A DNA stretch of 44,071 nucleotides from Escherichia phage vB_EcoS-UDS3lw, in the sequence record PQ658967.1. One strand, given 5' to 3'. The position numbers and the translations under genes were made by a program. Positions within the stretch are counted from its first letter, which is position 1. Every line of letters begins with the position of its first letter. A model generated the notes under the pieces. It made no database searches. It was not told the origin of the DNA and worked only from the letters and a program-made list of their open reading frames with translations. Positions 15,266-15,957 of the stretch are shown piece by piece.

Positions 15266-15643
15266 TTGGAGAATACTACAATGGCTAAAGCACCACTCTT
15301 TACACTTGACCCTAAGCCGACCTTTAAGCTGCCGATTGAGATCCCGCGCCCTGGAGAGAACGAACCCGGCAAGATGACGTTTACCGTACGCCACCGCCCG
15401 ATCGACGAATTTTCGCAAACCATGCAGGACACCGAACGAAAGCTGTCGGAATATGACGACAATGACCCGGACGGCTTTAACGTTATGGTCGAGGCCATCA
15501 TGCACGTCGCAGAAGGCTGGAATCTGCCGGACGAATTTAACGCGGAGAACGTCCGCCGCCTGGTGGTCAACTATCCACGCGCGTTCGGTGTGTTCCACAC
15601 GTCGTACTATCTCGAACTGATGGGGTTGCGTGAAAAAAACTAA
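15266..15643 (+). CDS. tail assembly chaperone (lambda gpG-like)
   Basis: 125 aa acidic protein directly upstream of tape measure region; ends at slippery A-run. Confidence 0.7.
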   Translation: MENTTMAKAPLFTLDPKPTFKLPIEIPRPGENEPGKMTFTVRHRPIDEFSQTMQDTERKLSEYDDNDPDGFNVMVEAIMHVAEGWNLPDEFNAENVRRLVVNYPRAFGVFHTSYYLELMGLREKN

Positions 15644-15957
15644 TTGAGGCGGCGCGACGCTTTTATGGCCCGCCGCCACCCTCCGAAGATTTAGCCGCAA
15701 GTTTATGGGGCGCGGCCCCCGAAGATGTTTGTCCACCTGTTGCGCTGTGGCCCGACAACGCGAAGGTAGTCGCAGTCTTCACAGATTGCTCCACGCAATG
15801 GCGCACCGGATTTGGTGGCGCATACGGCATCGACTACGGCGTGCTGGAGTGGTTATTTAAGATGCACGGTATCGAAAACGAACAGCGCGCGTTTAAAGAT
15901 ATCAAGCTAATGGAACGAATAGCGCTTGATGAGATGGCGCAGCAGAACCCCGCATAA
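15266..15957 (+). CDS. tail assembly chaperone G-T fusion via programmed -1 ribosomal frameshift
   Basis: Slippery heptamer A_AAA_AAC at 15633-15639 just before the G stop; -1 frame stays open for 105 codons to TAA at 15955-15957. Confidence 0.6.

Follow-up and report, generated by a model that had tools for sequence, protein, structure and literature searches.

Tail assembly chaperones and -1 frameshifting

The G/GT strategy of long-tailed phages, in which a tail assembly chaperone (G) is extended at low frequency by a -1 ribosomal frameshift into a second reading frame (T), is textbook knowledge and is said to go back to Levin, Hendrix and Casjens (in 1993) and to Xu, Hendrix and Duda (in 2004). 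We describe here a G/T locus of Escherichia phage vB_EcoS-UDS3lw (PQ658967.1), the whole 44,071-nucleotide (nt) sequence of which is referred to as the window and all features of which are given on the + strand. Comparison of the sequence with its relatives makes it very probable that programmed -1 ribosomal frameshifting at this locus yields a G-T fusion of 225 amino acids (aa) at low frequency. An earlier note on this DNA, made from the letters alone, had recognised the conserved G/G-T strategy here, and this is borne out by the position of the pair, the chaperone family to which G belongs, the startless -1 open reading frame (ORF) with its own domain, the in-register heptamer and the conservation of all of these.

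One of the nearest known systems is that of phage lambda, in which the chaperone ORF and its -1 extension lie between gene V for the major tail protein and gene H for the tape measure protein (the order V-G-T-H can be read in NC_001416), a heptamer of the form X_XXY_YYZ lies near the end of G and the fusion is made at a low ratio, G and GT being needed at approximately 30:1 (PMC5009743, in which the strategy is also reviewed). The present locus resembles this arrangement, the G/T pair being placed between the genes for the major tail protein and the tape measure protein as in the G/GT pattern, but it differs in several respects. Lambda G belongs to the Pfam family Phage_TAC_2 and lambda T to Phage_tail_T, whereas the window G and T match Phage_TAC_4 and DUF1799, and these are the only families found for them at E values of 0.1 or below, the lambda families being absent from the matches. 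This suggests that the locus works like lambda G/GT without being a member of the lambda families at the level of sequence, so that the relation is either a functional analogy or a homology too distant for these profiles. In lambda five sense codons separate the heptamer, G_GGA_AAG, from the end of G whereas the A_AAA_AAC found here adjoins the stop; the lambda AAG is read by tRNA-Lys in the A site and is efficient in E. coli whereas the AAC found here is read by tRNA-Asn and is inefficient; and lambda T overlaps H whereas here a repeat-rich gap of 374 nt precedes the tape measure gene.

In the T1-like phages (Drexlerviridae) SRT8, JLBYU07 and Skenny, T is homologous to that of the window from residue 1 at 35-39% identity, and SRT8 and JLBYU07 have the same site, written GTA_AAA_AAC_TAA, with a hairpin at the same distance. 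The genome announcement of the T1-like Klebsiella phage Skenny states that there is a G/GT-like frameshift (PMC6763657). Unlike the window, these phages belong to another genus, have a G of 104-105 aa and place the tape measure gene within approximately 40 nt of T, and the T1-like lineages Webervirus and phiEB49 have only an A_AAA or A_AAG tetramer. For the chaperone clusters of HK97-type phages, frameshifting of 6-7% has been measured in reporters (PMC3711429).

The identical heptamer is also known from transposons. In the insertion sequence IS1, A_AAA_AAC has been proven to cause -1 shifting at low efficiency in E. coli, fusing InsA to the -1 ORF downstream as InsAB'; motifs of this type are the next most frequent in IS1 and IS3 elements, and IS1 is cited as a case in which a weak motif is used deliberately (PMC4066793). 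In IS1 the product is a transposase and no stimulator has been established (PMC4066793), whereas in the phages considered here an adjoining stop is conserved and so, probably, is a hairpin. A g-t frameshift has been described too for the haloarchaeal tailed viruses HCTV-1, HCTV-2 and HCTV-5, but these have archaeal hosts.

Anatomy of the predicted shift site

G (15281-15643) is an ORF of 120 codons and a TAA stop that matches Pfam PF08748 (Phage_TAC_4) over positions 1-124 of 124 (83.9 bits against a gathering threshold of 21.1, E=1.4e-23) and PHROG 569 (E=9.8e-41); a coding sequence (CDS) of 363 nt is likewise annotated for it in relatives. Its 3' end, GGG TTG CGT GAA AAA AAC TAA, reads GLREKN-stop, as the earlier note had it. 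That note had also placed A_AAA_AAC just before the stop, which is correct, and had given its position as 15633-15639, which is not: these coordinates are those of a run of seven A residues that is followed by C at 15640, so that the heptamer in the register of the 0 frame, A (15634) AAA (15635-15637) AAC (15638-15640), occupies 15634-15640, one nt to the right.

The -1 frame had been said to stay open for 105 codons and to end QQNPA before a TAA at 15955-15957, and this is what the sequence holds: T (15640-15957) reads LIEAARRFYGPPPP...MAQQNPA from 15640. T matches Pfam PF08809 (DUF1799) with 76 bits against a gathering threshold of 26 (E=2.7e-21), profile positions 1-80 of 80 falling on T residues 23-99, and it matches PHROG 680 (E=8.5e-31). 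A further profile, PHROG 17368, with 213 positions, spans both genes, G matching over positions 1-107 and T over positions 150-212. The T frame is closed upstream by a TGA at 15631-15633, the 5' limit of the shift window, and the 0 frame is closed downstream by the TAA at 15641-15643 that adjoins the heptamer and forms the 3' limit. Both frames are therefore open over exactly 7 nt and these are the heptamer, which makes it the sole passage from G into the open T frame.

On the favoured reading most ribosomes translating G would end at the TAA at 15641-15643 and release the 120-aa G protein. A few would slip back by 1 nt on A_AAA_AAC, tRNA-Lys exchanging one AAA for another and tRNA-Asn exchanging AAC for AAA, and would then read CUA AUU GAG and so on in the -1 frame as far as the TAA at 15955-15957. 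The predicted fusion would thus correspond to 15281-15640 joined to 15640-15957, base 15640 being read twice, with the junction ...GLREKN|LIEAARR... and with the DUF1799 domain supplied by its C-terminal 105 residues.

One property of the site is of less use. That the -1 frame stays open for 105 codons or more past the end of an ORF is not exceptional, this being so for 23 of the 128 long ORFs in the window, and was for that reason dropped as an argument. The string AAAAAAC, however, is rare, with three copies on both strands of the window where 7.4 would be expected. A sequence search of the PDB with the G-T fusion found no relative (best match E=0.84), NCBIfam has no model for G or for T, and Rfam gave no match at gathering threshold anywhere in the window.

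Alternatively T might be a gene in its own right, with translation beginning at a non-canonical codon immediately past the G stop or by termination-reinitiation, in which case no fusion would be made. The GenBank record of phage HK578 annotates such a CDS (HK578_016) from an ATT at window position 15643, and elsewhere short stretches of T are annotated that begin at internal codons. The earliest ATG, GTG or TTG in the T frame, though, is a GTG at 15841, at residue 68 and past the conserved TQWR...G(I/L)DY core, which argues that T is not made alone. In relatives, moreover, the second codon of T is not a start codon (AAG, ACC, ATC, AGG and others) whereas the first, a Leu codon that overlaps the heptamer, is nearly invariant. 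Separate translation would leave the conserved in-register heptamer and the third-base rule described below unexplained, and does not fit a PHROG profile that runs through G and T. We regard it as very unlikely.

Conservation of the site among relatives

The window is that of a coliphage of the genus Dhillonvirus (HK578-like siphophages), and the 2 kb around the site are 90-98% identical to approximately 150 Escherichia, Shigella and Sodalis phages of this genus, the closest being phage McMelon at 97.6%. In nine Dhillonvirus sequences the variable sites of G fall on third positions of the G frame (68 of 82) and those of T on third positions of the -1 frame (65 of 86), the periodicity of substitution switching phase at the heptamer. 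Among 23 distinct sequences of the genus 75 of the 105 third positions in the T frame are variable, whereas the last three codons of G and the heptamer are invariant. One member of the genus has TGA in place of the 0-frame TAA, a change that is synonymous in the T frame.

Searching phages with the 105-aa T part by tblastn gave 1157 matching records. The distant relatives, at 30-45% identity, come from T1-like phages (Drexlerviridae), Cronobacter phage phiES15 and phages of Ralstonia, Pseudomonas, Pectobacterium and Xanthomonas. The -1 frame is thus conserved down to 30-45% protein identity, the opposite of the non-conservation in relatives that the earlier note had named as telling against a fusion. 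Homology with these distant T parts begins at residue 1, with L1 and A4 nearly invariant, and in each of the relatives inspected the end of the upstream ORF lies no more than a few bases from T residue 1. The heptamer itself changes from A_AAA_AAC to G_GGA_AAC at the same place: phiES15 has GAA_AAA_AAC_TAA, Pseudomonas phage phiAH14a TCG_GGA_AAC_TGA, Ralstonia phage YO103_8 CGG_GGA_AAC_TGA and Xp10 G_GGA_AAC_TGA, the last being likewise preceded closely by a TGA in the -1 frame. A few lineages do not have the full heptamer but only a tetramer, A_AAG or A_AAA, 0-1 codons from the G stop, as in Pectobacterium phage Sabo (CAA_AAG_TAA), Klebsiella phage LmqsRe28-1 (CAA_AAG_CCT_TAA), Webervirus (Klebsiella phage PMM-G3, GCA_AAA_GTT_TAA) and phiEB49 (GCA_AAG_GTC_TAA). 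These tetramers would imply slippage of a single tRNA at the homologous place.

A survey unbiased with respect to the shift site was made by scanning IMG/VR with a degenerate DNA pattern for TQWR-x7-GxDY, the core of the T domain. For each match the T frame was located, together with the upstream ORF in a frame shifted by one base and the overlap of the two, and 115 loci with sensible geometry were kept. A_AAA_AAC or G_GGA_AAC was present at the homologous place in 105 of these 115 DUF1799 loci. The heptamer directly abutted the 0-frame stop in 94 of the 105 (A_AAA_AAC in 59, G_GGA_AAC in 35), and a single codon separated the two in the rest (A_AAA_AAC in six, G_GGA_AAC in five). Five further loci had another arrangement (three with A_AAA_AAC 4-14 codons before the stop, one with G_GGA_AAA and one with A_AAA_AAG) and the remaining five had tetramers only. 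As a control, only 11 of the 3174 other ORFs of at least 100 codons in the same loci end with any in-register X_XXY_YYZ.

The codons at the site are fixed across the survey, with AAA as the sole codon for Lys, GGA for Gly and AAC for Asn. The codon that carries the first X of the heptamer stands for eight different amino acids in each class, among them E, R, A, V, T, K and G where AAA_AAC follows, with A always as its third base, and L, R, T, S, A, K and E where GGA_AAC follows, with G always as its third base. A third base that is fixed while the amino acid varies points to a constraint on the nucleotides, and so on tRNA re-pairing, and not on the protein. Mean G+C content is higher in the loci with G_GGA_AAC (0.605 against 0.551).

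These data bear on a second way in which the T frame might be entered, namely transcriptional slippage, RNA polymerase adding one A at the A run at 15633-15639 to give the junction ...REKK-LIEAAR. Runs of six to eight A residues are present at the site in the window and in many relatives, and the addition of one A leads precisely into the T frame. Known sites of transcriptional slippage in bacteria have runs of approximately nine or more (reviewed in PMC5009743), and the T1-like members have a run of only six. Since 40 of the 105 sites are G_GGA_AAC, which has no homopolymer of sufficient length and yet is a classic ribosomal heptamer, transcriptional slippage is improbable as the conserved mechanism; the strict 0-frame register and the rule for the preceding X base are properties of tRNA re-pairing. 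For the window we consider it highly improbable.

It could also be asked whether a sequencing error in the homopolymer has split what is a single gene into G and T, or whether T is a dead remnant. Runs of seven A residues are error-prone in some sequencing chemistries, and a single 206-aa ORF with Phage_TAC_4 and DUF1799 in one frame was seen in a metagenome (ENA ERZ27336856, NODE_101157, 173-793). This ORF is without the slippery site and the last 9-10 or so residues of G (...DVYL|LRAAVRAIY...), and may stem from misassembly or be a genuine in-frame fusion; as it lies on a contig of 811 bp with 2.6x coverage and the end of G is missing, it was given no weight. The same relation of frames is seen in all 23 Dhillonvirus sequences and in more than 100 diverse loci, some with sites that contain no homopolymer, and the T frame is under strong purifying selection, so that an artefact or decay is effectively refuted by the comparative data and retains a negligible probability. 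An exhaustive HMMER search with the fusion gave 1148 matches, among which G-type proteins end at query residue 119-120 and T-type proteins begin at arbitrary points, which fits gene callers being blind to the shift.

The nearness of the stop raises a variant of the ribosomal mechanism that would give the same fusion. The slip would occur after AAC has been decoded, while UAA waits in the A site for a slow release factor; tRNA-Asn in the P site, with or without tRNA-Lys in the E site, would move to AAA, CUA would then be read as Leu, and competition with the release factor, not tandem slippage in the A and P sites, would set the ratio of G to GT. The abutment of stop and heptamer in 94 of 105 loci, with one codon between them in the other 11, speaks for such termination-coupled slippage, as does the retention of A_AAG or A_AAA within 0-1 codons of the stop in members that have no heptamer. 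The codon 3' of the heptamer, stops included, reportedly modulates -1 shifting in E. coli (Horsfield et al. in 1995). Heptamers ending in AAC are, furthermore, inefficient in E. coli by the canonical mechanism (PMC4066793). On the other side, the adjacency of the stop may simply be inherited and is in part forced by the conserved Leu1 of T, given that CUA or CUG followed by A or G makes UAA, UGA or UAG in the 0 frame, and the protein is identical to the product of tandem slippage, so that sequence data cannot separate the two. Termination-coupled slippage is in our view a minority possibility. The same tentative standing is given to the broader proposal that the DUF1799 family uses a distinct conserved cassette, made up of an AAC-ending heptamer of 'eukaryote type', a fused stop and a hairpin about 5-8 nt further on, and termination-coupled in its action.

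Candidate stimulatory elements and the case for tandem slippage

Canonical tandem slippage on A_AAA_AAC, the reading preferred here, may be assisted by a GC-rich hairpin at 15648-15677, with arms GGCGGCG (15648-15654) and CGCCGCC (15671-15677), a loop of 16 nt and a spacer of 7 nt after the heptamer. The 45 nt past the heptamer have a minimum free energy of -17.1 kcal/mol, against -9.2 +/- 3.7 in other 45-nt segments of G and T (rank 0.02), and across the 105 loci of the family the median of this rank is 0.10, half of the loci being at or below 0.1. When codons were shuffled synonymously the family gave a mean z of -1.26, with p<=0.05 in 38% of loci. In the 23 Dhillonvirus sequences the wobble sites of the T frame that fall in the arms (15648, 15651, 15654, 15672 and 15675) are invariant, as is 15645 in the spacer, whereas variation is seen at each of the five in the loop (15657-15669) and at the four that follow (15678-15687); given that 71% of sites are variable in the background, five invariant arm sites have a probability of approximately 0.002. 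We regard the hairpin as probable, and together with the abutting stop it would probably set the low frequency of the shift.

A weaker candidate is GGGGU at 15622-15626, 7-8 nt upstream of the heptamer, which could act as a stimulator resembling a Shine-Dalgarno (SD) sequence. Its duplex with the anti-SD sequence has an energy of -5.4 kcal/mol in the window, and across the family complementarity to the anti-SD sequence peaks 4-7 nt 5' of the heptamer, with a mean of -3.9 where the background is about -0.5. The spacing between GGGGU and the heptamer is shorter than in dnaX, which together with IS911 typifies the bacterial tripartite -1 signal, made up of a heptamer, an upstream SD-like stimulator and a stimulatory RNA structure 5-9 nt downstream. 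As GGGGU overlaps a conserved Gly codon, it may reflect only a constraint on the protein or be incidental.

Several observations weigh against programmed frameshifting at this site, or against parts of it. A_AAA_AAC shifts poorly in E. coli when compared with A_AAA_AAG (PMC4066793, PMC5009743), and no experimental sighting of the fusion was found for this phage or, in the literature searched, for any phage of the DUF1799 family. The gap of 374 nt before the tape measure gene, with its terminator-like elements, differs from lambda and the T1-like phages. No joined CDS is present in approximately 22 sampled public records of relatives, which we read as a gap in annotation and not as evidence against the mechanism. 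The hairpin of the window is not significant against synonymous-codon shuffles (p=0.16), because the codons of Ala-Ala...Pro-Pro are intrinsically complementary, and 80 nt of downstream sequence compared with dinucleotide shuffles gave no signal (z=+0.47). RNAalifold found no consensus structure in 19 relatives, and a helix in fixed register showed no covariation in the same set (65.8% paired against 65.1% in shuffles); stems lie in different registers in different lineages, so covariation did not demonstrate structural conservation. The signal for the hairpin is seen only against internal segments, in the conservation of synonymous sites and family-wide.

A weak slippery site nevertheless fits the need for a low ratio of GT to G, and we infer the slip, its low frequency and the part played by hairpin and stop from the anatomy and conservation described above. 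The role of the two proteins would follow by analogy with gpG and gpGT of lambda. G would coat the tape measure protein both by itself and as part of the fusion, in which T would bring in the major tail protein, the tube then polymerising to the length set by the tape measure; neither G nor G-T would be retained in the virion.

Gene neighbourhood and repeats

The local order is major tail protein, hairpin, G, T in the -1 frame, gap, tape measure and then the tail-tip genes M-L-K-I-J, which are lambda-like. The gene for the major tail (tube) protein lies at 14486-15211 (Pfam Phage_tail_3, E=5.2e-32; PHROG 584, E=1.1e-73) and that for the tape measure protein at 16332-18974 (Pfam TMP_2, E=2.3e-43, and Tape_meas_lam_C, E=7.6e-14; PHROG 24, E=2.6e-178). 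Between T and the latter lies the non-coding gap of 374 nt (15958-16331), which is atypical for G/GT loci; the T1-like phages and phiES15, outside the genus, have no such gap before the tape measure gene.

A terminator-like element, a GC hairpin (15242-15258) with a run of T residues, lies at 15242-15267 and was found by a consensus scan (GGGGCCAGCACGGCCCC TTTTTTATTG). It is strong, consists of GGGGCC-AGCAC-GGCCCC plus TTTTTTATT, stands between the major tail gene and G, and is annotated as a putative terminator in phage PTXU06. If it acts as a terminator, G/T and the tape measure gene would be transcribed less than the gene for the tube protein.

The gap is rich in repeats. Two direct repeats of 63 nt (15962-16024 and 16040-16102) are 75% identical, each starting with the palindrome GCGGGACGTCCCG followed by TTTG, and the first of them, directly past the T stop, is given as a rho-independent terminator in the GenBank record of HK578. 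Where 2.1 copies of the octamer GCGGGACA would be expected in the window there are 20, and these cluster in two non-coding places, the gap and the right end (43684-43955). A GCGGGAC-rich module of approximately 135 nt (GGGGCGGGACAAAGCGGGACAGCACCCC...GCGGGACAGCGGGACA...CAGTCTTTCAGACTAGACGGGGGTCAACGGCCCCCCTCGTCTGAG) is present in three copies (16131-16262, 43697-43825 and 43826-43955) with 85% column identity and an invariant terminal hairpin of 45 nt. The RNA of 16128-16275 folds with -60 kcal/mol (z=-1.8), and the module has no match in Rfam. It could be an array for the binding of a regulator, or a late promoter or an element of antitermination type.

Annotation and significance

T is unannotated, fragmented or given an ATT start in all of approximately 14 sampled Dhillonvirus records and in the T1-like, phiES15-like, Pseudomonas and Pectobacterium records sampled. 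In HK578 (JQ086375; locus 813-1127) the ATT start lies one codon past the shift site, and in other records of the genus T is represented by pieces of 31-76 aa that begin at internal codons, or an ORF is annotated on the antisense strand. Some name G 'major tail protein' or 'tail length tape measure protein'. The record of vB_EcoS_L-h 1M (OM262540.1) has many N bases in G/T and a feature table offset from its sequence by approximately 726 nt, and its G matches locus 451-1126, a span annotated as major tail protein. Literature searches on frameshifting in Dhillonvirus or HK578 and on DUF1799 gave no description of the site, and a 2024 re-annotation of the T1-like phage TLS leaves a frameshift unmentioned.

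The site is an ordinary, previously unannotated case of the known G/GT strategy, and the general picture of phage tail assembly is unchanged by it. A simple rule follows for annotation, by which a Phage_TAC_4 ORF that ends in A_AAA_AAC or G_GGA_AAC plus a stop is joined in the -1 direction to a DUF1799 ORF; this would recover a tail assembly protein of approximately 225 aa in many hundreds of phage genomes. Should the termination-coupled variant be true, it would be common to hundreds of phages of enterobacteria, Pseudomonas, Ralstonia and Xanthomonas. For the study of recoding, the approximately 100 independent AAC-ending heptamers that abut a stop in bacteria form a natural data set, with which the tuning of low-level -1 frameshifting by adjacent stops and hairpins may be tested.

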